15,286 bases of DNA from a virus (IMGVR_UViG_2711768167_000011:1-15286); one strand, 5' to 3'; positions 1 to 15,286 are shown, numbered from the stretch's first letter. Numbers and translations: made by a program. The notes: generated from the letters alone by a model not told the origin.

Positions 1-141
1 CATTACGTGGGTAGGATCAATTTTCCTGATGACCCCATCGACATAGTATTTTTTCAAAGCAAGAATTGCCTTCTCGCTATGTATTCCTGATAGCTTGATC
101 AGGATATCAAAGTCTCTTTCAGATATATTCCCCTTTGTCAT
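1..141 (-). CDS. hypothetical protein, N-terminal fragment (gene continues past the left window edge)
   Basis: ATG at 141..139 with GGAG (rc of 148..151) 6 nt upstream; frame open for 47 codons to the window edge (MTKGNISERDFDILIKLSG...). Absent from the ORF track because truncated. Confidence 0.35.
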   Translation of the reverse strand, partial: MTKGNISERDFDILIKLSGIHSEKAILALKKYYVDGVIRKIDPTHVM

Positions 142-1406: not shown

Positions 1407-2597
1407 TTATATAGCTGGTGACTCTTTTCGAAGAGCATCAAGGTAGTCAGCGTACCATTGCATCATTTCTCGTCTTCCTTCAAGGTAACGAGCATGGTTG
1501 TATGTACCACGAATGCTGTTTTTGTCCGTATGTGCAAGTTGCATTTCAATCCATGCACTATTGAATCCTTGCTCGTGTAGAACAGTACTCATTGTATGAC
1601 GAAATCCATGCCCGGTAGCTTTTTTGTCATAGCCAATCTTCTTCAAAACCATATTGACGCTTGCATCGCTGATAGGCCTGTTAACATCATTTCTTCCGGC
1701 AAAGATGTATCTGTATCTTCCAGTCAGTTCTTTGAGGATTTGCAGAGACTGGATTGCCTGATCTGACAGAGGGACGATATGCTCCTTCCTCATTTTCATC
1801 CGGGTCGGAGGAACTTCCCATATCTTTTGGGTAAAATCGATCTCACACCATTCCCCCATACGTAATTCTACTGTTCTCAGCCCTGTGAGCATCAACAATT
1901 TTGTAGCTTCACGGGTTACAATACTGCCGGTGTAGTTTTCGAGTTTGTATAAAAACTCTGGTAGTTCAGGAGGAAGCAGGAAAGGGTAATGTGTTCGCTT
2001 ATAGCTTTTCATTGCTATAACCAGATCAGAAGCTGGATTGTATCGTGCCCGACCTGTAACAATGGCATACCGAAACACTTCACCACATCGTTGGCGAACT
2101 TTATTAGCTAGCTCGCAGGCTCCTCGGCTTTCGATACGCTGAAGAACTGCGAGAAGTTCAAGAGGTTCGATTTCACTAATGGGTCTGTTTCCAATGTAGG
2201 GAAACACATTATTTTTGAATGCTCTGTCGACATAATCAGCGTAGCTGGCAGACCAGCCTGAAACTTTTGCGTTGTACCACTCGGTGGCGATTGCGGCAAA
2301 AGTTCTTCCTTCGGAAAGGTTTTTCTCAAGATTTTCAGCTTTCTTGACTTCACCGGGATCTTTACCATCGGCATGTATTTTCTTGGCTTCATCCCGACGT
2401 TTGCGAGCTTCAGCCAATGTAATAGTTGGATAGGTGCCAAATGATAGTTTCTTTTCCTTCCCCGCATAGTGGTACTTCATTCGCCAGTACTTTGAGCCGT
2501 TAGGATTGACCTGAAGGTAGAGCCCACCACCATCGGCAATCTTATAAATTTTATCTTTGGGTTTGGCTGTTTCAACTTGTCGAGCTGTCAGTGGCAT
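1407..2597 (-). CDS. P4-type tyrosine integrase (396 aa)
   Basis: ORF-track 405-aa ORF; preferred start is ATG at 2597 (MPLTARQVETAKPKDK...) with GAGG 7 nt upstream, since the track start at 2624 is TTG. P4-Int-like N-terminus (KP.DK...DGGGLYL.V.P.GSK.WR) and C-terminal catalytic signature GHGFRHT ... RGTYNHARY. Confidence 0.9.
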   Translation of the reverse strand: MPLTARQVETAKPKDKIYKIADGGGLYLQVNPNGSKYWRMKYHYAGKEKKLSFGTYPTITLAEARKRRDEAKKIHADGKDPGEVKKAENLEKNLSEGRTFAAIATEWYNAKVSGWSASYADYVDRAFKNNVFPYIGNRPISEIEPLELLAVLQRIESRGACELANKVRQRCGEVFRYAIVTGRARYNPASDLVIAMKSYKRTHYPFLLPPELPEFLYKLENYTGSIVTREATKLLMLTGLRTVELRMGEWCEIDFTQKIWEVPPTRMKMRKEHIVPLSDQAIQSLQILKELTGRYRYIFAGRNDVNRPISDASVNMVLKKIGYDKKATGHGFRHTMSTVLHEQGFNSAWIEMQLAHTDKNSIRGTYNHARYLEGRREMMQWYADYLDALRKESPAI

Positions 2598-2940
2598 CTG
2601 GGGGCCTCGCAATAGATTGACCAAGATGTGCCCCTAAATAGGCCCCCAAATGTGACTTGATTTACGTTCCCCTGAGGAGAATTAAGGCGACTATTTGAGT
2701 AACATAAGTAAGGGTATGTGCTGATTATAAAGGCTTTTTGTGGGGTATGGTAGATTTCAGGAGAGGTGTGCATGGTGTCCCTGCAGAAATCATCTTAATT
2801 ATTATTATGTTGATTTATATGTAGTTTATTTTTGATTTTTTGTTTTTGTACCCGTTTTGTGCCCGTTTTATTCGATTCCCAATTTAAACTTCGATTCTAG
2901 AAAGGTGAGTAGGGGAGGTTGTCATTTCATGTATCATTAT

Positions 2941-2984
2941 TGTAGACACAGAATAATTACTCGCCTATCCTCACTGTAGACACA
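2941..2984 (+). promoter_or_regulatory. direct repeats upstream of the toxin-antitoxin operon (putative operator)
   Basis: Perfect 10-bp direct repeat TGTAGACACA at 2941..2950 and 2975..2984, 25-60 bp upstream of the antitoxin start; AGGAG at 2996..3000. Confidence 0.3.
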
Positions 2985-3008
2985 CAATAGATACAGGAGT
3001 TAACCCAC

Positions 3009-3257
3009 ATGCGCACACAGGTTGTATTGCAAAAATGGGGTAATAGCATTGCCCTTCGACTAACGGGAAACCTTAAAACCGTTCCGGGGTTTTCAGTGGG
3101 TGATATCGTCAACGTTGAAATTAGTGAAAAGGGGCTTTTTGTAGAAAAGCCTGCACGCCGTCGCCTGAGTGAAGCCGAATTACTCGCCGGGATAACGCCA
3201 GTTACAGCGCACGCGGACGAAATTGCCACCCCATTCAATGAGGAGGTTGATTACTGA
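3009..3257 (+). CDS. MazE/PemI/ChpS-family antitoxin (AbrB/SpoVT-type fold), 82 aa
   Basis: N-terminal KWGNSIALRL motif and C-terminal LAELLAGITP...EEV, resembling MazE as recalled; stop overlaps next start (TGATG at 3255..3259). Confidence 0.85.
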   Translation: MRTQVVLQKWGNSIALRLTGNLKTVPGFSVGDIVNVEISEKGLFVEKPARRRLSEAELLAGITPVTAHADEIATPFNEEVDY

Positions 3258-3601
3258 TGTTTGTACCTAAGCGTGGTGATATTTGCTGGCTGGATTTTGA
3301 GCCGCAGAAAGGAAAAGAGAGCGGAAAGTATCGCCCGGCACTCATACTATCCCATGAGCAATATAACCGACTCACCGGGCTTGTCATATGCTGCCCCATA
3401 AGTACGAGCATACGAAATGCTCCCACAGAAGTTCCGGTAACAAATCTGGACGCCCCCAGCGTGGTAGCAACCACACTCATTCAAACCCTTGACTGGCGTC
3501 AGCGGAAAGCGCGCTTAATCACAGAGGCAGAAGATGGGGTATTTAATGATGTGCTTGAAAGAGTCATTACCCTGATTGGTGGAGAGCATCTGCTTAAGTA
3601 A
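3257..3601 (+). CDS. MazF/PemK-family toxin (endoribonuclease family), 114 aa
   Basis: GDICWLDFEP...GKYRPALILS...LVICCPISTS pattern typical of the PemK/MazF family; translationally coupled to the upstream antitoxin. Confidence 0.85.
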   Translation: MFVPKRGDICWLDFEPQKGKESGKYRPALILSHEQYNRLTGLVICCPISTSIRNAPTEVPVTNLDAPSVVATTLIQTLDWRQRKARLITEAEDGVFNDVLERVITLIGGEHLLK

Positions 3602-3604
3602 AAG

Positions 3605-3622
3605 GAGGGCTGAGAAGCCCTC
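3605..3622. other. intergenic hairpin between convergent genes (weak terminator candidate)
   Basis: 7-bp stem GAGGGCT (3605..3611) / AGCCCTC (3616..3622), 4-nt loop; lies between the toxin stop (3601) and the stop of the convergent 423-aa gene (3645). No clean U-tract on either strand. Confidence 0.25.
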
Positions 3623-3644
3623 AACGTTACCAGAAATTTCCTTG

Positions 3645-4916
3645 CTATTCTTTCCAGTCAATCCCATCCAGTAAGCACCCTGCCTCATATTGCCCAACAA
3701 CCCAGTCAAGATTGCAGGACTCATAGAAAGCGAGGCGATTATACTGTGGCTCGTTTTTTACCAGACCACGAACGGAGCCGCGTTGCCAGTACAGGCACAG
3801 ATTGGCAAGAGGTGTGATCAGCACAGCATTGTCCGGGAAAAATGGAACGGTCACAGCCGGAAGATTCCCCAGCACGGGCTTTTTAATGATTTCCTCGTTA
3901 AGCAAAATTTCCTGATTCATCTGCGATGGATCAAGACGGTTTATCAAAGGCCATTGTTTACGGACCAGAGTATTGTGACTGCATACGGCCACAATGCCTT
4001 CCTGCCACTGTTCATCAATCATGGATTGCCAGGCATCCAGAACAAGTGCATCTATTGTATGGTGTGTACCGCGTGTATTGCTTGTCGGCGATGAAACAGA
4101 AAGACCGCTGATAACCCTTCCCGCTGCTTCGTTTCGAAACTTCTGCAACCATCCGACGCCGCAATCGTCACGGCCCGGATATGTTTCAGGATCAGATTGA
4201 TCGGCATAGTGTGTGCCGTTAAAACCAATCTGAATTAAATCCAGCCATTTCCGGCGTTCAAAAGCGGCACGGGCGCTTCCTTCAAGACCATTTGCGGACG
4301 CGTGAGCATCGACATTGTCGTAGCTCAACGCAAAATCAAAATTAACCTGCTCGCAGCGGTAGCCTCTTGAAACCAGTGAATGCGCCTGTAGTGGCGAACG
4401 GCGCTCGTGAGGTGGCGATGTACGTGCCAACGGCCCCGAAGCGTCTACCAGCACAACCTGACCTGATATATCCGTAACAGGCACGGGGGTTATTTCAGCA
4501 AGGAAATTTGCCTGCCATCCACTGGCAAGCGTTGCACTCTGGCGGGGAACGGGTTCAACTTCTGACGAATAGCGCGCAGTATCACCGGAAAAGTGCAAAT
4601 CCTTCGGATGTTTTCCGGTTATCGACTCGATAGCGCAATTGAAAACCATCTGAGACTGTTGATTTCGTTGTGATACAACATAATCAGCAGTGCAATTATA
4701 ACACTCAATGCCGTCGTTATTACCCCCACCGCTTGCAGTATGCAGGGTGTGAAGCTCAAGCTCACGCTCCAGTTTTTGATATTCATTGTCCAGCGCGCGA
4801 CGCGTCTCATCGCTTATGCTTGCTGTGTTTGCTTTCAGGCGATTCCGGGACATTAACTCCCTGAGTCGGCTCACTATATCAGCGCCGTGCAAATGTGAAA
4901 TATTCAGACCGCCCAT
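3645..4916 (-). CDS. hypothetical protein B (423 aa), downstream gene of the two-gene operon
   Basis: ATG at 4916..4914 overlaps the upstream gene stop (TAATG); corresponds to Met48 of the 470-aa ORF-track entry. Long uninterrupted frame; no Walker A, HNH or PP-loop consensus seen by eye. Confidence 0.7.
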   Translation of the reverse strand: MGGLNISHLHGADIVSRLRELMSRNRLKANTASISDETRRALDNEYQKLERELELHTLHTASGGGNNDGIECYNCTADYVVSQRNQQSQMVFNCAIESITGKHPKDLHFSGDTARYSSEVEPVPRQSATLASGWQANFLAEITPVPVTDISGQVVLVDASGPLARTSPPHERRSPLQAHSLVSRGYRCEQVNFDFALSYDNVDAHASANGLEGSARAAFERRKWLDLIQIGFNGTHYADQSDPETYPGRDDCGVGWLQKFRNEAAGRVISGLSVSSPTSNTRGTHHTIDALVLDAWQSMIDEQWQEGIVAVCSHNTLVRKQWPLINRLDPSQMNQEILLNEEIIKKPVLGNLPAVTVPFFPDNAVLITPLANLCLYWQRGSVRGLVKNEPQYNRLAFYESCNLDWVVGQYEAGCLLDGIDWKE

Positions 4917-5626
4917 TACTGCCACCCCCGGCAGAGTTCTCTGCCCTCCGCAAGGTCGCGCATTTTTTCTGGATTCTGTCGCGCCGCGCTCCATTGTACA
5001 GGTGAAGGGGCGTTCCTGATTGCGTGGCTTACCGAATCCGGCAGTTTCTCCGGGCAATAACGAAGCGGATTGGAGGCATCGCTCTCAATATCGTTAATCC
5101 GGCCGCGAATCAGCCTGACACTTTCAACAATATCTGCCACTTTCAGTGTTTCACATATTTTCTTTTCTGCGTTATACAGCGGCTGGCCAAGCAGCTCACA
5201 TAAACCACGAATCAATAACAGAGCAGGGATCAGCTCGTTAATCAGTCCGGGAAGTGCTTTTGCAAATATCTCTGCCCGCAACTTATTATCAATGCTTTCG
5301 TAAGCACAGCCAGCCTCTGCCGCGTTATAACGACACTCCAGTAACATGATGCGCGCCTCATCATGCAATACCCGCAGACGCTCAAGATTTTCTCGCGCCA
5401 CACCCGCCTGAATGGATAATTTTGCGGAGGCTTCCGTTTTTGCGCCCAGCGCAGACAGGATTGAGTTCTGCCAGTCACGATCGAGAGACTCCAGCTCCCC
5501 TTTCGTCTGTTCGATAGTCGCTTCCAGATTGGTGATTAATGATTCCTGTTCGCTGAGTTTTGCGCTGGCCGTATCAAACTGTGCTTTACATGCCTGATGC
5601 TTGGCGCTTGCCTGAGTTATATCCAT
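4916..5626 (-). CDS. hypothetical protein A (236 aa), predicted helical/coiled-coil N-terminal half
   Basis: ATG at 5626..5624 with AGGAG 6 nt upstream (rc of 5633..5637); heptad-like charged/hydrophobic N-terminus (LSEQESLITNLEATIEQTKGELESLDRDW); stop TAA at 4918..4916 overlaps the start of gene B. Confidence 0.7.
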   Translation of the reverse strand: MDITQASAKHQACKAQFDTASAKLSEQESLITNLEATIEQTKGELESLDRDWQNSILSALGAKTEASAKLSIQAGVARENLERLRVLHDEARIMLLECRYNAAEAGCAYESIDNKLRAEIFAKALPGLINELIPALLLIRGLCELLGQPLYNAEKKICETLKVADIVESVRLIRGRINDIESDASNPLRYCPEKLPDSVSHAIRNAPSPVQWSAARQNPEKMRDLAEGRELCRGWQ

Positions 5627-5676
5627 TGTTTGCTCCTGTAATACATTTTTTACTTACGCGGATTTTTTCCATATTG

Positions 5677-5735
5677 CGTAATACATTCCAGCCGATTTTG
5701 TTCTCGTAATACGCTCACAATACTGTTGTATTACG
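5677..5735. promoter_or_regulatory. divergent promoter/operator region with GTATTACG-family repeats
   Basis: CGTAATAC at 5677..5684 and 5705..5712, GTATTACG at 5728..5735; the last two form a perfect 8-bp inverted repeat with a 15-bp spacer. Sits between the start of gene A (5626, minus) and the small plus-strand gene (5791). Confidence 0.4.
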
Positions 5736-5790
5736 CTTTCTTATATCGCGGGTGTTAAATCCAGGCATAAGCAATCAGGGAGGCAACACG

Positions 5791-6024
5791 ATGAAAAAAC
5801 AAAAGAAAATGCGATACGTATTACGCTGTATTCGTATCCCGCACGAAATCGACCATAAAATAAATCAGATATGTGAGGACAGAGAGATGAACTACTCCCA
5901 GTGCGTCAGAATGTTTATCAGTCAGGGAATTAAGGCCGGGGAAACGCAGGAAGAAGACCGCAACGGGCGCAATGTAGCGGGGGATGTGTGGGCCTGGGCA
6001 AATGACCAGAACTACACGACGTAA
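5791..6024 (+). CDS. small DNA-binding-like protein (77 aa), possible ribbon-helix-helix regulator
   Basis: ATG at 5791 with GGGAGG (5777..5782) upstream; the ORF-track start at 5752 is GTG without an SD. Predicted beta-strand then helices (MRYVLRCIRIPHEIDHKINQICEDRE...), judged by eye only. Confidence 0.5.
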   Translation: MKKQKKMRYVLRCIRIPHEIDHKINQICEDREMNYSQCVRMFISQGIKAGETQEEDRNGRNVAGDVWAWANDQNYTT

Positions 6025-6074
6025 TACAGAAATAACGTAGCCGGTTACACTCGCTGGCTGTGTTATACAAATCA

Positions 6075-6257
6075 CTATGAAGTTTTCAACTTCCTGCGCT
6101 TAGTGATGCGTACAAACGACTCAAGCGTACAAAAACAAGCCCCACACTCAATATTATTGCACTGGTAATACGTTTTGTAGATGTTTTGTTCGTGTTCTTC
6201 CAACGAACGACTACGGGTTCGGGTTGAAGCGCCACAGGCCGGGCAAGGGAAAGACAT
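6075..6257 (-). CDS. Ogr/Delta-family zinc-finger transcriptional activator (60 aa)
   Basis: Four-Cys pattern CPACG...(22 aa)...CNNIECGACF with the conserved YYQCNN-type core of P2 Ogr / P4 Delta as recalled; ATG at 6257 with AGGAG 8 nt upstream. Confidence 0.7.
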   Translation of the reverse strand: MSFPCPACGASTRTRSRSLEEHEQNIYKTYYQCNNIECGACFCTLESFVRITKRRKLKTS

Positions 6258-6618
6258 ATCACGCTCCTCTTACTGGTGTGAAATTTGACCTATTATATCT
6301 TCTGCCGCCCCCTCTGGCTGTATCAAATAAACCCGCAGCAGTCGCCGCGTATTACGCACGGACGCACCGTTCCCATGCTCACTCGTCACATTCCCCGTAT
6401 CAGTTCTCTCTTACCGTAAGAACGGCTCTGGCTGGCGATAAAACTAACCCGGTCGGGCATTCCCGCAGTCTTTAGAGAAAATGTAATTTACCCCCTGAAA
6501 CGCGGGCTGTTCCCCCGTCACCTGCGCGCGAAAAACTCACCGTTTTTTGTGCACGCACGAAATCGCCCTCCGGGTGCGCCAGTACTGGGCTGGATGGGCA
6601 AAAAGTTACTCTAAAAAA

Positions 6619-6645
6619 TTGTGCAAATTTGTGCACTTTTGTGCA
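6619..6645. promoter_or_regulatory. three phased TTGTGCA direct repeats (putative operator or activator site)
   Basis: TTGTGCA at 6619, 6629 and 6639, exactly 10 bp apart; a fourth copy at 6547..6553. Confidence 0.3.
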
Positions 6646-6871
6646 GATGAACAATAGCGTGAAAAAGAGTGCTTTTGAGAGATTTTTTATGGCAACTGCG
6701 CCGCGTGTATTACGTTTTTTACCATCCCCGCCGCGCATGTACATACTTCATTTTTCTGCCAGACAACAGGGCAACTCCCCGTGACTGACAGCCCCAAAAA
6801 ATCAATGATTGATGTTGCATTTTTGTTAAAGGTTAGACCAGTTGTTTTAGGGCTCTGCCTCATAATCCGGT

Positions 6872-7185
6872 GGGGGGTGCGCAAAGCGGTTACAACGGTT
6901 ACAACACTCAAAAACACCACTTAACAGCATGATTTTAATGGATATTGTTTGTAACCGCTTTGCGGTTACACTGCGGTTACAACGGTTACAGGTTTCAAAA
7001 AGCACTTTATTATCAATCAATTAAAAACTTAACCTGTAACCGCCTGTAACCTAACAAAACGGTTACATGTAACCGCGTTGTAACCGCTTTTGTAACTCAT
7101 CGGACCAGTTATAATATATTGATATATAATACAAAAATAAGTAATTTTAAATTTGTAACCGTTGTAACCGCTTTGCGCACCCCCC
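6872..7185. repeat. iteron array (14 copies of GGTTACA/TGTAACC) bounded by 33-bp perfect inverted repeats; candidate replication origin or recombination substrate
   Basis: IR-left 6872..6904 is the exact reverse complement of IR-right 7153..7185, extendable to 36 bp with one mismatch. GGTTACA at 6888, 6897, 6964, 6975, 6984, 7061; TGTAACC at 6950, 7035, 7045, 7068, 7079, 7154, 7163. Internal palindromes GTAACCGCTTTGCGGTTAC (6951..6969) and GGTTACATGTAACC (7061..7074). Confidence 0.6.
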
Positions 7186-7380
7186 CCCAAACTTTAGCGC
7201 GACCCTTTAAAATGTTAATTAAACTCACTTACTCTGTATCTCTCTCGTTAACTTTCTGTTATTGAAATGTATCTCTCCACTGTTTGACTCTTTCTCATAA
7301 TCAGGGGAAGCAAAAAATTGATGGCGGCACTACTGCAATATGGCCACCATTGCATTGCTGTTACCGTTGGTTCTGGCCAA

Positions 7381-7412
7381 CAAAAAAGGTCAGCGGGAAA
7401 CTGACCTCTTTT
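7381..7412 (-). terminator. rho-independent terminator downstream of the primase-integrase operon
   Basis: 7-bp stem AGGTCAG (7387..7393) / CTGACCT (7401..7407), 7-nt loop, flanked by A6 (7382..7387) and TTTT (7409..7412), so bidirectional in form; about 25 nt past the integrase stop at 7437. Confidence 0.6.
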
Positions 7413-7436
7413 GCTGTGAATGCGGCGTTCTGCGGG

Positions 7437-8441
7437 TTACTCTGCTGGCTCTTTTTCTTCGGTGATCACTATGTTGGCTACCGGGTTAAATCTCATGGCA
7501 TCTGCCAGATAATCCGGTGCAAAATGTGCGTATGCCATAGTCTGCTGAATTGTCGCATGCCCAAGGATTTTTTGTAGCGCAAGAATGTTGCCACCGTTCA
7601 TCACAAAGTGACTGGCGAATGTATGCCGCAATACATGCGCAGCCTGCCCCCTCGGTAAATCGGGTTTTATTTTTTTTAATGCCCGGCAAAACTCTCTGTA
7701 CTTCACATCAAACAGTCGCCCGGTTTCTTTTGTTTTTACGGCATCGCATATTTCCTGCGACACAGGCACCGTTCTTTTTCTACCGTTTTTGGTTTCCAGA
7801 AACGTTATTCTGTTATGAACTATTTGCTCTCCATGCAATCTGCTGGCCTCACTCCAGCGGGCTCCGGTACAAAGACACAAGAGCGCAACCCTTCGTTGAT
7901 CTCCATTCAGCCCGTCAAGCAACAATGTGACCTCGTTTTTTGATAAAAAGGCCATTTCCCGCTGCTTTACATAAAGAACAGGAATACCACGAACCGGATG
8001 CTCTGCATCCCACAAACCGATCTTTTTCAGGGCTGTAAACATCCCCGATAATCTGTTCATGTATCTGTTTGCTGAGGACGGCTTTAATCCTTCCGCAATT
8101 TTCTGCGATCGCCATGCAATGATTTTTAATTTGTTGAGTTCTGCCGCAAACATGTCAGCTCCAAGCTCATTAATAATTTTGCCAAGTTGCTGTTTATCCG
8201 TGTTTGCCTTTCGCCTGTGCTGACCGTGATAGACCCACCACAATTCCAGTAAATCGCTAAGCGTTCTCCGGTCGCGATAGCCCTGTATAAACTCGCGCTT
8301 TTCGGCGTTCGCTATGATGTACCGTTCAGTTGCTGTAGCTATCGATTTTTTGTCAAATATTCTTCTGATGCGCTTCCCTTTACGTCCGCATGGCCTGATA
8401 TCGAGCAGCCACCGCCCATCATGCATCTTTCTGATCGGCAT
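7437..8441 (-). CDS. P2-type tyrosine integrase (334 aa)
   Basis: N-terminus MPIRKMHDGRWLLDIRPCGRKGKRIRRIFDKKS closely resembles recalled P2 Int (DGRYEVDIRPTGRNGKRIRRKFDKKS); catalytic HVLRHTFASH and C-terminal Tyr (QTMAYAHF). Start ATG at 8441 with AGGAGG upstream; the ORF-track start at 8477 lacks an SD. Confidence 0.85.
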   Translation of the reverse strand: MPIRKMHDGRWLLDIRPCGRKGKRIRRIFDKKSIATATERYIIANAEKREFIQGYRDRRTLSDLLELWWVYHGQHRRKANTDKQQLGKIINELGADMFAAELNKLKIIAWRSQKIAEGLKPSSANRYMNRLSGMFTALKKIGLWDAEHPVRGIPVLYVKQREMAFLSKNEVTLLLDGLNGDQRRVALLCLCTGARWSEASRLHGEQIVHNRITFLETKNGRKRTVPVSQEICDAVKTKETGRLFDVKYREFCRALKKIKPDLPRGQAAHVLRHTFASHFVMNGGNILALQKILGHATIQQTMAYAHFAPDYLADAMRFNPVANIVITEEKEPAE

Positions 8442-8443
8442 GT

Positions 8444-11113
8444 TTAACTCCCCTCCTTGTAACTGAATATCCGGCATTTCAGTACTTCCGGCTCTCTGGC
8501 CTCGGCGACCCCTCTTCCGGCGTTTGCCTGTCTGGAGACCTCACTACGAATGGTTTTGCGGCCTGTCAAAGGTCGGGAACGTCCGGCTGCGAGCAACTCA
8601 ATCATTTCGCGGTCAGTTCGGATCTCCACGCGGTGGATAGCGGCAGCCTGTGCCAGTTGCGGAATACTGATAGCAATCCCCTCGCGGCATCCCTTGCCGT
8701 AGTGGTTTACACCGTATTTTGTTATGCCGTCCAGATAGTCGAACGCCTCCCAGAACGCTATTACTTCCGGCAAGTCATCCGTTACCGCTTTAACTTGTTC
8801 CGCTGCCATTCGTTCCAGTTCCTGGCATGTGGCATTAAGCCATTCATCCGGGATATCAATAACGCATTTCAGCGCCCTGACCAGCGCAATAAGTTGCGCG
8901 TGATTTTTGGCAATACGGGGATGGAGAATATTTTCGCAACCGCAAAGGCGGGTCGTTTCAGGCTCTGAGAGCGCCAGAAACATTTCCATAATTGCCCGTT
9001 CACGGCTGACTGCCCGATGAATAAACCCTGACACCTTCTCAACGGGGTAGAGTTCCAGTCGTCTCGCCGCCAGCCGGGTATCAGACGAGTGGCGCTTTTT
9101 ATCGGTATATATGCGAATCAGTCGCTCAATAATTGCAAGTGAGGCGTTTACCCTGGCATTCTGTGCAATCACGATAGCGCCCTTAAAATCCGGGTCATAG
9201 GTGTTGTTATTGTTGGTCTTAACGCCACGAACGCCGATACCGCCGCCGTTATAGAGGCTTTTCAGGTTATCGAAGTCAAACGCACCTCTTTTTTGCGCAT
9301 TGCCTCCCCGGTCTGCTTCAATCAGAACAACAGGTAATCCGGCGACCTGTCCAAAGGTGCGCTTCCAGCCCGCCTCTGATCCTTTGGTTGGATCAACGCC
9401 TTCATAGTTGTCACGACCGCACAACCGCCAGCAAAAATCAATCAATGTTGATTTACCCGTTCCGGGCTCCCCGGTGACTTCAAGGAAGGGGAAGGATTCT
9501 TCTTTATCCCGGATTTGTTCGCTGAACAGGGAGCCCAACCAGAAAGCCAGGGTAATAATTCCTTTTTCACCAAAAGCCAGCCAGAGATCTTCCACCCAGG
9601 ACTCTGTAAACTCATCCGGTTTTTTGTAGTTAATCTGTAATGTGGGTTTTTCGCTTAATGGTTTTGCGTTTATGCCATCAATTTCAAAATAATCTTCGTC
9701 ATTGATTTCATAAGTTTTTCCCTTGTAAACAGCAATATCATTAAACAGCCATGCCCCAATCGCCTTGTTGTATCCGATAAAATCCTGACCAATAACCTCT
9801 TTTATTGCGGGAAGGTCATTTTTTATTAATGCGTCAAGGTGCGCAGTTGTTCCGGTATAAATGCCGCCTTTTGCCACATGCAACAGGCGTTTTTTAAATT
9901 CAGATGCGGATGTCAATTGTCCTGATGTAAAGGTGTTTTTCACCGTAGCACCATCCGGGAACGTAACACGGAAGTAATACCATGCTTCATCCGTGTCATT
10001 ATTTCGAATGTAATAAAGCGGCGCTGGGTTACAGTTTGCGATTTCTTTTACTGCGCCAGATTCCTTAAGTGCAATTTTGCGCGCTTCATCCTCATCAACA
10101 CTTCTCTCATTCTTGGCACGCTCTACAGCTTTCATATAGCGCTCAATGTCCAGTTTGAACCAGAAAACACGGTTATCAAAAGTAAAATGAAATTCCTTCC
10201 GCTCACGAAAGGAAAATATTATTAGCGCCTTATCTCTCGGAGATTTCGCCAGCAATAAATCACCGTAATGACGGTATCTTTTCACATCATGGCCACGCAG
10301 CTTTCCGGCGATGTGTAAATCATTCCAGTCGCGTTTATTGTTGTTTTTACCTGGCAACGCCGCTGCCGTTCTCCAGCCGTCTTCGGCGCTGCGTTCTGCA
10401 TGTTTTTTCGCGTAACGCTCACCCGCACGCCCGTTATCCAGCGCCCACACAATAACCGGACGGGGATTATCCCCGCACAGCTTCGCCAGCTCTTCCAGCG
10501 CCTTATCAGGGTAGTTCACGGCAGACATGACAGAAACGGCCGCAATGCCATTCTGGTTAAGGCTGATGGCATCAAAGATGCCCTCACAAATCCAGATTTC
10601 TTTGGCCTTGCTTAAATCTGCTCCCGGATAAGCCCACCACAACCCCTTGTAGCTGCCGGAAAAATTCGCCTTGCGCGCGAAGCGTCCCGGTCTGTCTATG
10701 ATGCGCTCCCACCACACGCCGTCAGCCAGCGTAAAACGCACAGTAGCGGCCTGTTCGCCGTTTTCCTTGTCCTGGTATCGCTCCTGAGTAAATGCGCCCT
10801 TCAGTGGCCCCACAGCAATATTGCGCGCCTCCTGAAGATAAGCTGCCACCGCTGCATATGGCTCGTCTTTCGTGCTGATATAACGATCTGACCATGATGA
10901 AAACACATCCGGGTAAAGTTCTTTGGTCAGCAGGTCTGTACCGCATTTATTTTCGCGCCCACAGTGTACGATGTACGGCCTTTCAAGGCTGGTAAACAAC
11001 TCTTTCTTTCCACATTGCGGACAAACACCATACCGGAGGTAGTTATTTTCTTCTTTGAAGTTGTAATCACGGATAAGACGGTTAATAATCTCTTTTCTGA
11101 TGTCAGATTTCAT
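8444..11113 (-). CDS. bifunctional primase-helicase (P4 alpha-like / PICI pri-rep-like), 889 aa
   Basis: N-terminal zinc-binding CPQCGKK...HCGRENKCG, Toprim-like ICEGIFDAISL, P-loop GEPGTGKST and Walker-B-like VVLIEAD. ATG at 11113 with GGAG 8 nt upstream preferred over the GTG at 11137. Confidence 0.85.
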   Translation of the reverse strand: MKSDIRKEIINRLIRDYNFKEENNYLRYGVCPQCGKKELFTSLERPYIVHCGRENKCGTDLLTKELYPDVFSSWSDRYISTKDEPYAAVAAYLQEARNIAVGPLKGAFTQERYQDKENGEQAATVRFTLADGVWWERIIDRPGRFARKANFSGSYKGLWWAYPGADLSKAKEIWICEGIFDAISLNQNGIAAVSVMSAVNYPDKALEELAKLCGDNPRPVIVWALDNGRAGERYAKKHAERSAEDGWRTAAALPGKNNNKRDWNDLHIAGKLRGHDVKRYRHYGDLLLAKSPRDKALIIFSFRERKEFHFTFDNRVFWFKLDIERYMKAVERAKNERSVDEDEARKIALKESGAVKEIANCNPAPLYYIRNNDTDEAWYYFRVTFPDGATVKNTFTSGQLTSASEFKKRLLHVAKGGIYTGTTAHLDALIKNDLPAIKEVIGQDFIGYNKAIGAWLFNDIAVYKGKTYEINDEDYFEIDGINAKPLSEKPTLQINYKKPDEFTESWVEDLWLAFGEKGIITLAFWLGSLFSEQIRDKEESFPFLEVTGEPGTGKSTLIDFCWRLCGRDNYEGVDPTKGSEAGWKRTFGQVAGLPVVLIEADRGGNAQKRGAFDFDNLKSLYNGGGIGVRGVKTNNNNTYDPDFKGAIVIAQNARVNASLAIIERLIRIYTDKKRHSSDTRLAARRLELYPVEKVSGFIHRAVSRERAIMEMFLALSEPETTRLCGCENILHPRIAKNHAQLIALVRALKCVIDIPDEWLNATCQELERMAAEQVKAVTDDLPEVIAFWEAFDYLDGITKYGVNHYGKGCREGIAISIPQLAQAAAIHRVEIRTDREMIELLAAGRSRPLTGRKTIRSEVSRQANAGRGVAEAREPEVLKCRIFSYKEGS

Positions 11114-11161
11114 ATATAAAACTCCACCCCACTGCACCTTTTGCCGTGGGGTTTTTATTAA

Positions 11162-11461
11162 TTACTCGTTACTTATTGCTTTGGCAATCCCGGCGGTTTC
11201 AGCACTATGCCATGAAAAAATTCCGCCAGAAGTATGCATTCCTGACTTAATCACTCGTAATTCCCGATAAAGAATGTTAGTTAATGATTCCATTTCATTA
11301 ATTTGCACTGGCATTCTCTCACTGGTATTAATTTCACCTGTCAATGCTGAAAGGAGCGCAATAACATTTATTACATCTTCAAGATTCTCAATGGAATCTT
11401 CCGTGAAAAAACCAGCGTATTCTTTTTTGTATATATTGCGGATATTCTGATTTTTAGACAT
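11162..11461 (-). CDS. hypothetical protein (99 aa)
   Basis: ATG at 11461 with GGGGAG 5 nt upstream; sits immediately upstream of the primase on the same strand. Confidence 0.5.
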   Translation of the reverse strand: MSKNQNIRNIYKKEYAGFFTEDSIENLEDVINVIALLSALTGEINTSERMPVQINEMESLTNILYRELRVIKSGMHTSGGIFSWHSAETAGIAKAISNE

Positions 11462-11528
11462 AAAAACTCCCCGACCCGTTAAGATCGAAATATAAATTTA
11501 ATTCAGTTATCAGTTGGTAATTCGGTAA

Positions 11529-11747
11529 TCAGTCGGAAAGCTGCGTCACCTTCAACGCTTTGAAATGTGTCATTCCCAGCTCTTCCAGCCCTTCGGCTGC
11601 GCGGCGTATGGCTTCGCCCGGTCCTGTTCCGTATACCGTTGCATGTGCATGTTTGGTTAACCCACGTTTATTAACGGCATAACCCAACACAAAGAAACGT
11701 TTTTCACCACTGCCATTATTTTTACGGGATATTGAACGGCTTTTCAT
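11529..11747 (-). CDS. hypothetical small protein (72 aa)
   Basis: ATG at 11747 overlaps the upstream stop (ATGA), indicating translational coupling. Confidence 0.45.
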   Translation of the reverse strand: MKSRSISRKNNGSGEKRFFVLGYAVNKRGLTKHAHATVYGTGPGEAIRRAAEGLEELGMTHFKALKVTQLSD

Positions 11748-11932
11748 TTCTTCACCTTTACCACTGATGCTGTGAGTTCTTCTTCTGGCAATTGATATTT
11801 CGGCGCAATTTCTTCCGTATACCTGATAGCGTCCCTTGCCGCTTTTCCTTTTGATTTATATTTACGTATCGTGTGGAAGTTTTCTTCCTCTCCTGTTACC
11901 ACATTACGCAATTTAATATGAATCTCGTACAT
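11744..11932 (-). CDS. hypothetical small protein (62 aa)
   Basis: ATG at 11932 (Met11 of the ORF-track entry, MYEIHIKL...) with GGAGG 7 nt upstream; 2 nt after the upstream stop. Confidence 0.45.
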   Translation of the reverse strand: MYEIHIKLRNVVTGEEENFHTIRKYKSKGKAARDAIRYTEEIAPKYQLPEEELTASVVKVKK

Positions 11933-11934
11933 CG

Positions 11935-12117
11935 TTACCCCTCCATGATTTTTACTGCGCATTTGTGGGTTAATCGCCCCTGTTTGTCATTGCGGGAATA
12001 TGCCATACGACAGGCATCAAGCCATACATCGTCATAAGTCGGATATTCCCGGGAATGAATCATCTGGCGAACGTCGCCGTTCTGGTAGTTAATCAGGGTG
12101 ATAAGGAGCTTAAACAT
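11935..12117 (-). CDS. hypothetical small protein (60 aa)
   Basis: ATG at 12117 (Met27 of the ORF-track entry, MFKLLITLINY...) with GGGAGG 6 nt upstream; overlaps the 3' end of the Icd-like gene by 8 nt. Confidence 0.4.
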   Translation of the reverse strand: MFKLLITLINYQNGDVRQMIHSREYPTYDDVWLDACRMAYSRNDKQGRLTHKCAVKIMEG

Positions 12118-12283
12118 GGCACGCCTCCCGGACACGGATACGGGCAACAAAGACCAGACGAGATGCCGGAAGCAGGGCGCGCGCTTCGCGCTCACTGGCA
12201 GCGGTAACGGTATGAAGGCGGATATTTTTACCGTGGCACTGCATAAAGCGCCAGATAAAATCAGGGCGTGTTGATATAGCCAT
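12110..12283 (-). CDS. Icd-like cell-division-inhibitor family small protein (57 aa)
   Basis: C-terminal 57 aa of the 175-aa ORF-track entry, starting at ATG 12283 with AAGGAG 8 nt upstream; FIWRF...SEREARALL...LVFVARI pattern resembles Icd-like proteins of P4-like elements as I recall them. Confidence 0.5.
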   Translation of the reverse strand: MAISTRPDFIWRFMQCHGKNIRLHTVTAASEREARALLPASRLVFVARIRVREACHV

Positions 12284-12699
12284 TTTGGCGGCTCCTTCTA
12301 CTGATTTACGGAGTCTCGCCAGCACGCTGCTAAACATGGTGGCGGGACGTAACAGGGTTAGCAGACTGGCGTAGAAGAAACCAGCGAGCGCAAAGGCTCC
12401 CCCATTACGCCCCGCCATAATACGGGGTAGGGTGGAATTACGGGCACAAAAAAACCGCATTACGGAAATATAGCGGCTACCCGCTTCTACTATCAGGCTG
12501 CTAAACCCGGCACCCGCTTTATGAGGTGCGGGCAAACGATACGCCATGACAAAAAAGCGAGTCAAGCAATATTGCAAATTATTTTTGGGCGATTGCGCTG
12601 AGTGATTGATTTTTAAGAGTAAAAAAGTCATAATCATTTCTGGCTATTGTTTCTTATTGTTGATTTCAGGTGCACTAAATGCACATCCTTGACTGGTTG

Positions 12700-12729
12700 G
12701 CTCGCTGGCTTTAGCGAGCTTCTTTTTTG
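12700..12729 (+). terminator. plus-strand intrinsic-terminator-like hairpin with no plus-strand CDS upstream
   Basis: 7-bp stem GCTCGCT (12700..12706) / AGCGAGC (12713..12719), 6-nt loop, followed by TTCTTTTTTG (12720..12729). Confidence 0.3.
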
Positions 12730-13190
12730 CTCTGCTGTCAGTGATCGGCCTCCTTCCCTCATATGTAGTCATGTGCTCATTCCAGTCAGGTGGATAATGC
12801 TGTATTACCGGACATCCGGTTATGATGTTTAAAGCGTTTGTTTGTTTATGCCACGTGGAGAATATACCCCCACCGCCATTACTTGTATTTATCATAACAG
12901 TTCACCCAATTCGGTTAATGTAACCGGAATAACTCAATTTCATACACTGTAAATAAATGCTGATTTTAAACTTAGCTCCTTGGAATATATTTCTTACGTG
13001 TGACGCACAGGTGAAAATATCCCTCTGATAGTCCATTTTCTTTTATTTTGTCACATCTGTTTACTCCGGTTCCCTTAACAAGGGTAGAGCATCTTTTAAA
13101 CCATGAATGCATCTTCGGTTAAGTGATGTTTCTTATTGTATGAAATATTTAGGCGCATATCGCGCCATGCTGACTATAAAATGAAAATAA

Positions 13191-13412
13191 TTAAGCCTGA
13201 AAACGTTGTTGTTTTCTTTCTTCTATCCAGTCGATAATTTCCTCTTCAACCCATGCAACCGCGCGAGGGCCTATTTTTATTGGTTTGGGGAATATATCAG
13301 ATTTTATATCTTCGTAAATTCGAGCTCTTGATCTCCCTGTGATTTCAATGACTCTGGGGAGTCTTATTAATTTTTGAATCCGCCTTTCGCTGGTCTGTGA
13401 GTATGCTGACAT
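13191..13412 (-). CDS. alpA: AlpA-family (excisionase-like) phage transcriptional regulator (73 aa)
   Basis: LIRLPRVIEITGRSRARIYEDIK...FPKPIKIGPRAVAWVEEEI matches the AlpA/Xis-like helix-turn-helix pattern; ATG at 13412 with AGGAGG 5 nt upstream. Confidence 0.85.
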   Translation of the reverse strand: MSAYSQTSERRIQKLIRLPRVIEITGRSRARIYEDIKSDIFPKPIKIGPRAVAWVEEEIIDWIEERKQQRFQA

Positions 13413-13942
13413 ATTGGCCTCCTGTATATGCTGACATTTTACGTTAGCTCACAGCGGGAGCATGTAAGATCTCGCGGTCGTCTGCGGGACGAGAAAAATC
13501 ATAAACAACGAAAAGCGGATTTGTAAATCAGGTCGATTTTCAGGCGGGGTTGACAGGGACAGTGAGATTTGTTCCATGTGTGCAATATACATTTTAGGAC
13601 CACTTTAAGCCACTTTAAACCGCCAGAAAGCGACAAAGAATAACAAGTTAGTGCCAGAAAGGTTTGCTGACTTACCCTTTTAGGTACCAGAAAAAGCCCT
13701 TTCAGGTCGGTGTAATGCTTGTGAACGCTGAAATAGTGGTTTCTGAAAACAAAAAAAGAATTGAAAATGCGATACATATCACAAAATAATATCGATAAAA
13801 TAGTTTGATTTTTTTTGTTTTTATTAAAAGCACTGGTTAATTGTAAAAAATTAATTATAAATCAAATGGATATATCTGTTTTTTTAGGGTAAAAATCACT
13901 AGGTGCTTTTAGCAGTATCTTATTCTATTGATTTTAAAAGAT

Positions 13943-13976
13943 AAAAAAATCGGCGTGTCCACATATTGTCCACGCC
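13943..13976 (-). terminator. rho-independent terminator candidate downstream of the right-hand integrase
   Basis: Stem GGCGTG (13952..13957) / CACGCC (13971..13976), preceded on plus strand by A7 (13943..13949), i.e. a U7 tail on the minus strand; about 50 nt past the integrase stop at 14024. Confidence 0.45.
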
Positions 13977-14023
13977 TTGAGTTTAATTCAGCCGCTTGGG
14001 ATAGTTTAGTTTGTTGAGTTGAT

Positions 14024-15286
14024 TCAGTCTGTTTCGTTAGTCCATTTAAAATCATAGGGGGAAATATATGCCGTCTTGCAGGTGTCGAGATAATCAGCCC
14101 ACCATTGCAACATTCGGCGGCGTTCCTGCATATGTTCAGCTCTGTGAACGTATGCAGCCCGGACACTGCCTCTTTCCCTGTGACTCATCTGAAGCTCAAC
14201 GGCTTCTCTTGTCCACCTGCCTGACTCTGTCAGCGCCGAACAGGCCATGGTCCTGAATCCGTGACCACAAATATCTTTTTTTGTGTCGTATCCCATGTGG
14301 CGTAATGCCTTGTTAATGGTGTTTTCGCTCATTGGTTTTATCTGGTAATGGTCGCTGGGGAAAATAAACACTTCATCACCGGATATATTTCTTATATCGT
14401 CAAGAAGCTGCATGGCCTGAGTGGGTAAAGGGATGGCGTGAGGGGTTCCCATTTTCGTTCCACGATATGAATATTTTACGCCTTCTATTTTTTCGCGTTC
14501 TGCTGGTATTACCCACATTGATTTATCAAAGTCAATTTCATTCCAACGAGCAAAACGCAATTCACTTGAGCGAATAAAAATTAATAAATTTAATTTTAGT
14601 GCAAATTGCGTTAATAACCGTCCATTCATCTTATGGTGGTAATCATTTATTTTGCCAAGTAATTCAGGTAATCGCTCAAGGGGAAGAGCGGGGCGATGTT
14701 TGGTTTTATTAGTTTCGATTGCACCGTTCAGTTCCTGCGCTGGATTGTATTTAATCATTCCATTCTGTACAGCGTAGCGCATAATGGCGTTCATTCGCTG
14801 CTTGTTACGTGATGCTGTCTCAAGCACTCCTTTGTCTTCCATTTTGCGTAAAGGAATCAGTAGATCCATGGTTGTGATCTCGTTAATTGGCCTTTTACCA
14901 AGAATGGGGAAGATGTGGTTTTCCAGGTCTTTTAAGACTTTTTGCGCGTGTAATTCGCTCCACCCCTTTTTCCGGCTGTGCCATTCTCTGGCAACGTCTT
15001 CAAAAAGCACTATTTGAGGTTTTGGTGTGTGCAGTGGGTCAATGCCTTTAGCCAGGCTCGCCAGATATTCATCACGAGCGTTCCTTGCCTGTGCAAGTGT
15101 TACGGCAGGATAAATGCCTAAAGCTCGGGTCGTTTCTTTACCGTTGATAACCTTGCGAAAGCGCCAGTATTTTGAGCCGTTGGGGTGAACATAGAGATAC
15201 AGGCCTTTCCCGTCACGAAGTTTTTTAATTTTATTGTTGTCCTTATCTGGTTTGGCGTTACGTACAGCTATATCAGTCAGTTTCAT
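14024..15286 (-). CDS. P4-type tyrosine integrase (420 aa)
   Basis: N-terminus MKLTDIAVRNAKPDKD...GKGLYLYVHPNGSKYWRF typical of P4-family integrases; catalytic GHGFRTMA and C-terminal RAAYVHRAEH; the start codon is the last 3 nt of the window, so RBS and upstream att lie outside. Confidence 0.9.
   Translation of the reverse strand: MKLTDIAVRNAKPDKDNNKIKKLRDGKGLYLYVHPNGSKYWRFRKVINGKETTRALGIYPAVTLAQARNARDEYLASLAKGIDPLHTPKPQIVLFEDVAREWHSRKKGWSELHAQKVLKDLENHIFPILGKRPINEITTMDLLIPLRKMEDKGVLETASRNKQRMNAIMRYAVQNGMIKYNPAQELNGAIETNKTKHRPALPLERLPELLGKINDYHHKMNGRLLTQFALKLNLLIFIRSSELRFARWNEIDFDKSMWVIPAEREKIEGVKYSYRGTKMGTPHAIPLPTQAMQLLDDIRNISGDEVFIFPSDHYQIKPMSENTINKALRHMGYDTKKDICGHGFRTMACSALTESGRWTREAVELQMSHRERGSVRAAYVHRAEHMQERRRMLQWWADYLDTCKTAYISPYDFKWTNETD

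Follow-up and report, generated by a model that had tools for sequence, protein, structure and literature searches.

Apparent tandem insertion of a genomic island and a P4-like phage satellite at argW, with a P2-type integrase gene fixed within the satellite

The viral DNA stretch IMGVR_UViG_2711768167_000011:1-15286 (hereafter the window, meaning all 15,286 nucleotides (nt) that were analyzed) contains three genes for tyrosine recombinases, all encoded on the minus strand and each open from start to stop codon, as determined by listing of open reading frames (ORFs) and by family scans. Two of these encode P4-type integrases with the Pfam architecture Arm-DNA-bind_3, Phage_int_M and Phage_integrase, namely the left integrase (1407–2597; 396 amino acids (aa)), which belongs to a genomic island, and int1 (14024–15286; 420 aa), the terminal integrase of a P4-like phage satellite. 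The third, int2 (7437–8441; 334 aa), is a P2/P88-type integrase gene with Int_N and Phage_integrase domains. The products of the two P4-type genes share 38% identity, while the Int2 protein has no meaningful similarity to either and is unrelated to them beyond the fold. A preliminary description had counted the same three recombinases, two P4-type and one P2-type on a single strand, and had stated that the window lacks a tRNA gene; the ORFs, domain architectures and protein identity confirm the former, and ARAGORN, which finds no tRNA gene in the window, the latter. That description took the three recombinases as the mark of tandem or composite islands. The part of this reading that stands is the presence of two elements at one site; the P2-type integrase marks no boundary, and is instead a conserved internal gene of the satellite.

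The two elements meet at a degenerate direct repeat of the 3' end of the tRNA-Arg(CCU) gene argW (2772–2791, plus strand), corresponding to the attL of the satellite and to the attachment (att) copy of the island. The window here reads ATGGTGTCCC-TGCAGAAATC and the argW 3' end reads ATGGTGTCCCCTGCAGGAATC, the two differing by one mismatch when a single-base deletion is allowed. Such a match to the tRNA-end 20-mer occurs once in the window and in none of 200 shuffles. Genome comparison, performed by megablast of the window against 5426 complete Escherichia coli genomes, splits the window at this junction, with 2772–15286 and 1–2797 matching different sets of genomes. Homology to the satellite begins exactly at position 2772 whatever lies to its left, be it the UpaE region, dsdC, csc genes or an IntS prophage. 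The satellite stands alone beside the core genes dsdC or csc at five of the loci compared (L085 among them), beside the IntS prophage at three (including L086) and beside the UpaE region at one. Its closest relatives are found in GF60 and ECCNB12-2 (99.3–99.5% identical to window 2772–15286), with many others at 92–95%, and the elements of both GF60 and ECCNB12-2 are bounded by the repeat and tRNA-Arg. In the ECCNB12-2 copy (99.3% identical), tRNA-Arg begins 178 nt beyond the int1 start codon and adjoins yfdC; a spacing of ~180 nt between int1 and tRNA-Arg recurs in TOE17 and E92. The satellite (2772–15286, minus strand; ~12.7 kb when complete) would thus continue ~180–200 nt beyond the window to argW. 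Satellites with a different terminal integrase also occupy another chromosomal site, hpt|gcd (L004–L006, L009 and L074).

The left element is an argW-targeting genomic island, of which the integrase end and some AT-rich cargo fall inside the window. The start of the left integrase lies 175 nt from the repeat at 2772, and the integrase-proximal end of the island (2598–2771) is, by eye, the same as the integrase–argW spacer of the related locus L066, where identity extends through 2771 and is followed by an intact tRNA at the place of the degenerate copy in the window. An identical left-integrase protein is encoded directly beside yfdC and tRNA-Arg(CCU) in 10 of the 10 contigs read, with PapB and other cargo on the opposite side; a PF03333 PapB match occupies the same position as in the window in nine of the ten. 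Within the window, this cargo comprises the 5' part of a gene for a PapB/FocB-family regulator (1–141, minus strand), truncated by the window start, and AT-rich island DNA (142–1406) with a single ORF of at least 40 aa (405–527; 40 aa). The guanine–cytosine content is 0.25–0.34 over positions 1–1500, to the left of the left integrase. Positions 1–2797 are 99.8% identical to O26:H11 strain 11368, in which a PapB/FocB-family coding sequence is annotated, the island lies between two argW-3'-end repeats 26.7 kb apart, and an apparent prophage starting with torI takes the position of the satellite. The left integrase is full-length in the window, and its copy in strain 11368 (L002, 7407–8597) is a RefSeq pseudogene with an internal stop. 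The identical left-integrase protein is also present in 11,757 blocks of an assembly collection.

Comparison with other genomes shows the architecture of the window and its origin as a tandem. Each element is also found alone at argW in other E. coli genomes and both occur with other partners; a comparison with related genomes lacking one or both islands was among the checks that the preliminary description had proposed. As each occurs separately with other neighbors, the array represents an accretion of independent argW-specific elements. Several expectations of that description agree with the data, including a right-hand island running leftward to about 2.6–3.0 kb (its boundary is 2772, constant across other genomes), an att-like repeat within 2598–3008, an attachment site for the right-hand integrase beyond 15286 (given the tRNA-Arg of ECCNB12-2) and a left integrase heading a second island (given its yfdC–argW neighborhood in all ten contigs and the two repeats of strain 11368). 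The pattern that it had set against its own reading, namely one pair of repeats enclosing the entire region and no repeat within 2598–3008, was not what was observed.

Accretion is proposed to proceed as follows. Each P4-type integrase would recombine the attP of its own element with the last ~20 bases of argW; a newcomer would insert at the intact tRNA copy, the older element being displaced outward and a partial copy of the tRNA end, here 2772–2791, remaining between the two. The satellite is nearer the tRNA and hence probably arrived after the island. Other tandem elements at tRNA genes of E. coli, such as those of the argW hotspot (KplE1/CPS-53, Stx phages and islands), likewise have P4-type integrases ~175–180 nt from the tRNA 3' end, direct repeats of the tRNA end around each element and newcomers stacked on the tRNA-proximal side. 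There is no difference in kind between these and the present array, though the pairing of a PapB-carrying island with this satellite is not among the 5426 complete genomes. Arrays at argW are mentioned in published papers, and the tandem arrangement is ordinary, known behavior of this locus. The comparison has practical value in giving exact element boundaries (2772–2791) and in showing that the number of integrases does not equal the number of islands.

The integrase gene int2 is a fixed component of the satellite. It is the next gene after the primase-helicase in 15 of the 15 E. coli-type satellites examined, at both the argW and hpt|gcd sites and whatever the terminal integrase. Only 2 nt separate the primase stop codon from the start of int2, whose Shine–Dalgarno sequence (AAGGAGG) lies within the last codons of the primase; the two genes are translationally linked. 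The encoded protein shares 51% identity with P2 Int and 81% with the Xuanwuvirus P88_4B11 integrase, and no variation is seen at the catalytic residues R195, H269, R272, H295 and Y304. Among satellites of this lineage, synonymous and non-synonymous differences stand at 21:5, 23:3 and 6:2, and the ratio of non-synonymous to synonymous substitution rates (dN/dS) is 0.03–0.14 for pairs with enough differences and 0.56 in one close pair with six differences. Judged by these ratios and residues, int2 is under purifying selection and looks functional. At the DNA level, similarity to the nearest phage gene does not reach beyond the edges of the ORF (8441–7498), and int2 is therefore neither a prophage remnant nor an island boundary.

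In a collection with one genome per species, the closest relative of int2, and the sole close one, is that of L009, an hpt|gcd-type satellite. The loci L091 and L092, from Salmonella and relatives, encode a primase of a different family (Zn_Ribbon_Prim/DUF927), again followed by a P2-type integrase, in this case 75% identical to the int2 allele of the window (allele A, below). These satellite-like elements each encode, in addition, a terminal P4-type integrase, AlpA and MazEF, and L091 a capsid homologue. As these loci share the gene order, the primase–int2 arrangement reaches beyond Escherichia. A survey of P4-like elements described a rare (<1%) class with an 'integrase next to alpha', which it attributed to neighboring mobile elements (PMC8628076). 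Beyond that remark, nothing was found in the literature on a second integrase in P4-like satellites or on satellites of Xuanwuvirus. The satellite family would be missed, or misread as a neighboring mobile element, by automated annotation and by the published survey.

The probable helpers of the satellite can be recognized from its packaging region. A cos-like segment (6486–6646) is ~80% identical to 19 phage records, all of them P88-like or close relatives, and the alignment crosses the end-to-start junction of the linear P88_4B11 record. Given a match restricted to P88-like phages and spanning the ends of that record, this 160-nt segment is probably cos, and P88-like (Xuanwuvirus) P2-family phages, whose cos region it matches, are the probable helpers. 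The segment is unannotated; at ~82% identity it is present in ~1100 of the 5426 complete E. coli genomes, compared with 66 that have the satellite primase, and may serve as a marker for P88-like phages and satellites.

The int2 gene exists in at least four alleles that mirror the integrases of P88-like phages. Satellites otherwise 92–98% identical have a single allele-linked difference, a swapped block extending from window position 7667 to 8392/8434 and corresponding to int2 codons ~17–258, which encode the DNA-reading part of the protein (the arm- and core-binding domains plus the first half of the catalytic domain). The other alleles are 47–55% identical to that of the window, and alleles A, B and C are mutually 47–54% identical; all alleles share a satellite-specific C-terminal tail (...E(E/Q)K(E/K)PAE; ...EEKEPAE in the window). 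In a comparison with phage integrases that covered alleles A, B and C, allele A (the window) is closest to those of P88_4B11 and Chuche (81%), allele B (L006 and L085) to those of 569R5 and 705R2 (85%) and allele C (L086 and L074) to that of P88 (77%), with the next-best phage integrases at only 53–58%. Allele D is represented by L090 (P0036). The phages matching the int2 alleles are the same phages that share the cos region of the satellite. Among these, type A phages insert at the 5' end of pdxB and have TGTCCAC arm repeats, and type B phages insert next to dmsA and have TGTCCAT repeats. The int2 alleles are shuffled relative to both terminal integrase type and iteron type.

Int2 sites inside the satellite would be expected to change with the cassette, and no other block does. 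Since the rest of the satellite does not follow the allele and contains no helper attP core, the best-supported inference is that Int2 acts in trans on att sites of the helper or host, a possibility that we would nonetheless place somewhat below even odds. Under such a scheme, Int2 would supply integrase activity for the excision or integration of the helper when the replication operon of the satellite is on. Derepressed P2-type prophages make little Int, and Int2 might, for example, bring about the excision of a derepressed helper prophage whose own Int is in short supply; alternatively, it might promote the integration or excision of an infecting helper. Exchange of alleles would, on this view, adapt the satellite to one helper lineage or another. 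The broader proposition of an Escherichia/Salmonella satellite clade with an exchangeable helper-integrase specificity cassette, the integrase acting in trans on helper att sites, is put forward tentatively and is on present evidence rather doubtful. If Int2 does act on the helper, satellite–helper specificity would gain a site-specific recombination component, testable with P88, Chuche and 569R5, and satellites would be manipulating their helper phages in a manner not described before.

Taken as a whole, the window is best explained as an island and a satellite in tandem at argW, with int2 fixed in the satellite and an action in trans suggested for its product; the probability of this overall reading is estimated at about 0.85. 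Several observations weigh against one or another part of it. No DNA target of Int2 was identified, and a pair of repeats resembling P88-like arm sites does exist in the satellite (13956–13973), independent of the int2 allele. The pdxB site is empty in the satellite-bearing ECCNB12-2, so that a resident matched helper is not required. At the DNA level, the satellite int2 alleles are ~74% identical to known phage genes, and from this low identity it follows that the exchanges are old or the donors unsampled. As to the tandem, the window ends at the int1 start codon, and argW is placed beyond 15286 by way of the 99%-identical relatives; the order of arrival is deduced from geometry. The exact pairing of island and satellite occurs in no complete RefSeq E. 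coli genome (n=5426), the best coverage being 82%, nor does it appear among the many contexts retrieved with the left integrase and MazF.

The repeat pair at 13956–13973 (plus strand) is an exact direct repeat, TGTCCAC-N4-TGTCCAC, located 50 nt past the int1 stop codon; no exact pair arose in 500 shuffles. It has GGCG/CGCC flanks and is followed by a T-run on the minus strand. The pair was considered as an Int2 arm site in view of its resemblance to the arm pairs of P88-type attP, and was rejected because it ignores the int2 allele. All four argW-type satellites in which the flank near int1 was read have the pair, be their allele A, B or C, and none of the four hpt|gcd-type satellites scanned does (allele A in three, allele B in one). 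By following the argW int1 type and not the int2 allele, the pair belongs to the int1 module, and could form part of an int1 terminator hairpin.

Among other explanations for int2, it was considered whether the gene provides a second integration module, directing the satellite to the chromosomal site of the helper (pdxB, dmsA or others) when argW is unavailable. An intact gene of true integrase type and under selection accords with this, as does its location, given that attP lies just downstream of int in P2-like phages and that the 250 nt past int2 are highly conserved and non-coding. However, alleles A, B and C are all followed by the same downstream region, with no other block linked to the allele. 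The 22-nt pdxB core of type A helpers, AAAATCCTTGTTGAKGAAAATA, is absent from the window with up to three mismatches allowed, and arm repeats are absent from the conserved part. Every satellite examined is moreover collinear and inserted via its terminal P4-type integrase, making a role of this kind unlikely. Searches for a helper attP inside the satellite gave a concordant outcome: the attP regions of P88_4B11, Chuche and 569R5 produced chance matches of 11–13 nt (blastn-short), and the one match touching the core, AAAAATCCTTG at 7562–7572, corresponds to the int2 codons for QKILG, with no extension of the match.

A further proposal, that int2 serves to resolve multimers of the satellite or to invert the segment with the origin, as a plasmid-style maintenance function tied to the replication module, directs attention to the putative replication origin. 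This iteron field (6869–7188) includes 13 copies of GGTTACA/TGTAACC, an AT-rich stretch and 36-nt inverted repeats at its ends (6869–6904 and 7153–7188); the motif occurs 17 times in the window against 1.6 expected, with 13 of these within 6888–7169. The succession of primase, int2 and iteron origin resembles modules of rep, resolvase and ori, and the inverted repeats on either side of the field would suit a fim-like invertible segment. Yet inversion of the segment is seen in none of six relatives, which are collinear throughout. The iteron type is also independent of the int2 allele. In the satellite of STEC313 (L006, 7420–7750), GGTCACA replaces most of the GGTTACA copies at the same position and orientation, while L085 (allele B, as in L006) and L086 (allele C) keep GGTTACA, which excludes the iterons as Int2 sites. 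The arms of the inverted repeat are themselves built from iterons that change with iteron type and not with int2 allele, and hence are not an int2 switch. A resolvase would, in addition, have no reason to follow the alleles of helper integrases, and each cassette exchange would call for a matching change in its site; we regard this proposal as improbable. The coordinated change of iterons in L006 instead suggests co-evolution with its primase, which is 90% identical to that of the window.

It is very improbable that int2 is the remnant of a third, nested element, such as a P88-like prophage that inserted in the satellite and then decayed. The 77–85% identity of its alleles to P88-like phage integrases is compatible with this origin, and the survey cited above read its rare integrase-next-to-alpha cases as neighboring mobile elements. 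The homology is nevertheless limited to the ORF, with no phage flanks, attP or att repeats; the gene is embedded in the primase operon, with its ribosome-binding site inside the primase gene; and it is present in every E. coli-type satellite examined, at two chromosomal sites, and is under purifying selection. Finally, a single composite island, in which three recombinases share one pair of repeats and 2772–2791 is a chance match, would account for three genes on one strand within 15 kb and for the absence of the exact combination from the complete genomes searched, but can be dismissed as exceedingly improbable, given that each half occurs alone at argW elsewhere with the breakpoint at exactly 2772, that shuffled sequences never reach the tRNA-end match, and that the halves differ in relatives and base composition.

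In its lifestyle and most of its components, the right element conforms to the P4-like type of satellite. The terminal P4-type integrase, AlpA and the Delta/Ogr activator are features of such satellites, as are RNA immunity of the C4 type together with an Icd-like ORF, a cos like that of the P2-family helper, the size (~12.7 kb) and the variable cargo slot beside the att site; the primase-helicase with its iterons is a putative further feature in common. The element differs from P4 in lacking a match to Psu or Sid (Pfam, PHROGs and NCBIfam), a capsid homologue and a 236-aa protein taking the place of psu and sid at that end, and in a primase closest to that of a P2-like Evevirus (51%). Gene order also differs, with int1 beside alpA and not psu, and an additional helper-type integrase follows the primase. 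That integrase shares the Int_N and catalytic architecture and the R-H-R-H-Y residues of P2-family integrases (P2, 186 and the P88-like Xuanwuvirus). In P2-family phages, however, int lies in the C–int operon with attP (arm repeats and core) directly downstream, whereas int2 lies in the primase operon, has a satellite-specific tail and adjoins no recognizable attP. Capsid-forming phage-inducible chromosomal islands are satellites that carry their own capsid gene instead of only redirecting that of the helper. In contrast to these, only a capsid homologue and one upstream protein were identified here, with no portal, terminase or head–tail genes, and the family and helper type differ. A helper-type integrase cassette in a capsid-bearing P4-like satellite is the unexpected part of the array and is not ordinary.

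From left to right, the satellite comprises MazE/MazF, the capsid homologue, the 236-aa protein, Ogr/Delta, the cos-like segment, the iterons, int2 and the primase-helicase, followed by small ORFs, the Icd-like ORF with C4 and isrK, the AlpA-like regulator and int1. The mazE/mazF-like toxin–antitoxin pair (3009–3257 and 3257–3601, plus strand) lies between the capsid gene and the att site, and is identified by a PemK_toxin match, a weak MazE match and RefSeq annotation. A divergent homologue of the P2-family major capsid protein (3645–4916, minus strand; 423 aa; PF05125, E = 1e-73) is 33–39% identical to phage capsids and has an N-terminal extension of ~90–130 aa; in L005, L006 and L090, the capsid gene lies instead between alpA and the Icd-like ORF. 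Directly upstream of the capsid gene in the window, a 236-aa protein is encoded (4916–5626, minus strand) that has no significant match in Pfam, PHROG or NCBIfam, the only hit being a sub-threshold one to tropomyosin; by its position, it is possibly scaffold-like or Sid-like. An Ogr/Delta-type zinc-finger late-gene activator (6075–6257, minus strand; PF04606) follows.

The primase-helicase, the replication protein of the satellite (8444–11113, minus strand; 889 aa), has Toprim domains and a weak DUF5906 match. Identity is 51% with the primase of the P2-like Evevirus ESSI2_ev239 and 44% with those of Ralstonia P2-like phages, and the P4 primase is absent among the best 12 phage matches listed for it. 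Small ORFs at 11162–11962 have no family match. An AlpA/Vis-like helix-turn-helix excisionase or regulator is encoded at 13191–13412 (minus strand), as indicated by PHROG excisionase/regulator families and by PF05930 matches on orthologues. The Icd-like ORF (12110–12631, minus strand; NF033153) overlaps the P4-type RNA immunity region, in which the C4 antisense RNA (12335–12422; Rfam RF01695, 73 bits) and isrK (12448–12529; Rfam RF01394, 50.6 bits) were detected. As both Rfam matches overlap the ORF, much of it may be an RNA-coding immunity region instead of protein-coding.

Two further non-coding features adjoin int2. A hairpin with T-runs on both strands (7387–7407), just past the int2 stop codon, is conserved in five satellites and is the probable terminator of the primase–int2 operon. 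The non-coding DNA between the iterons and int2 (7189–7436; ~250 nt) is ~90% conserved even in L006, the most divergent relative, and could act in cis in replication, serve as a promoter or encode a small RNA.

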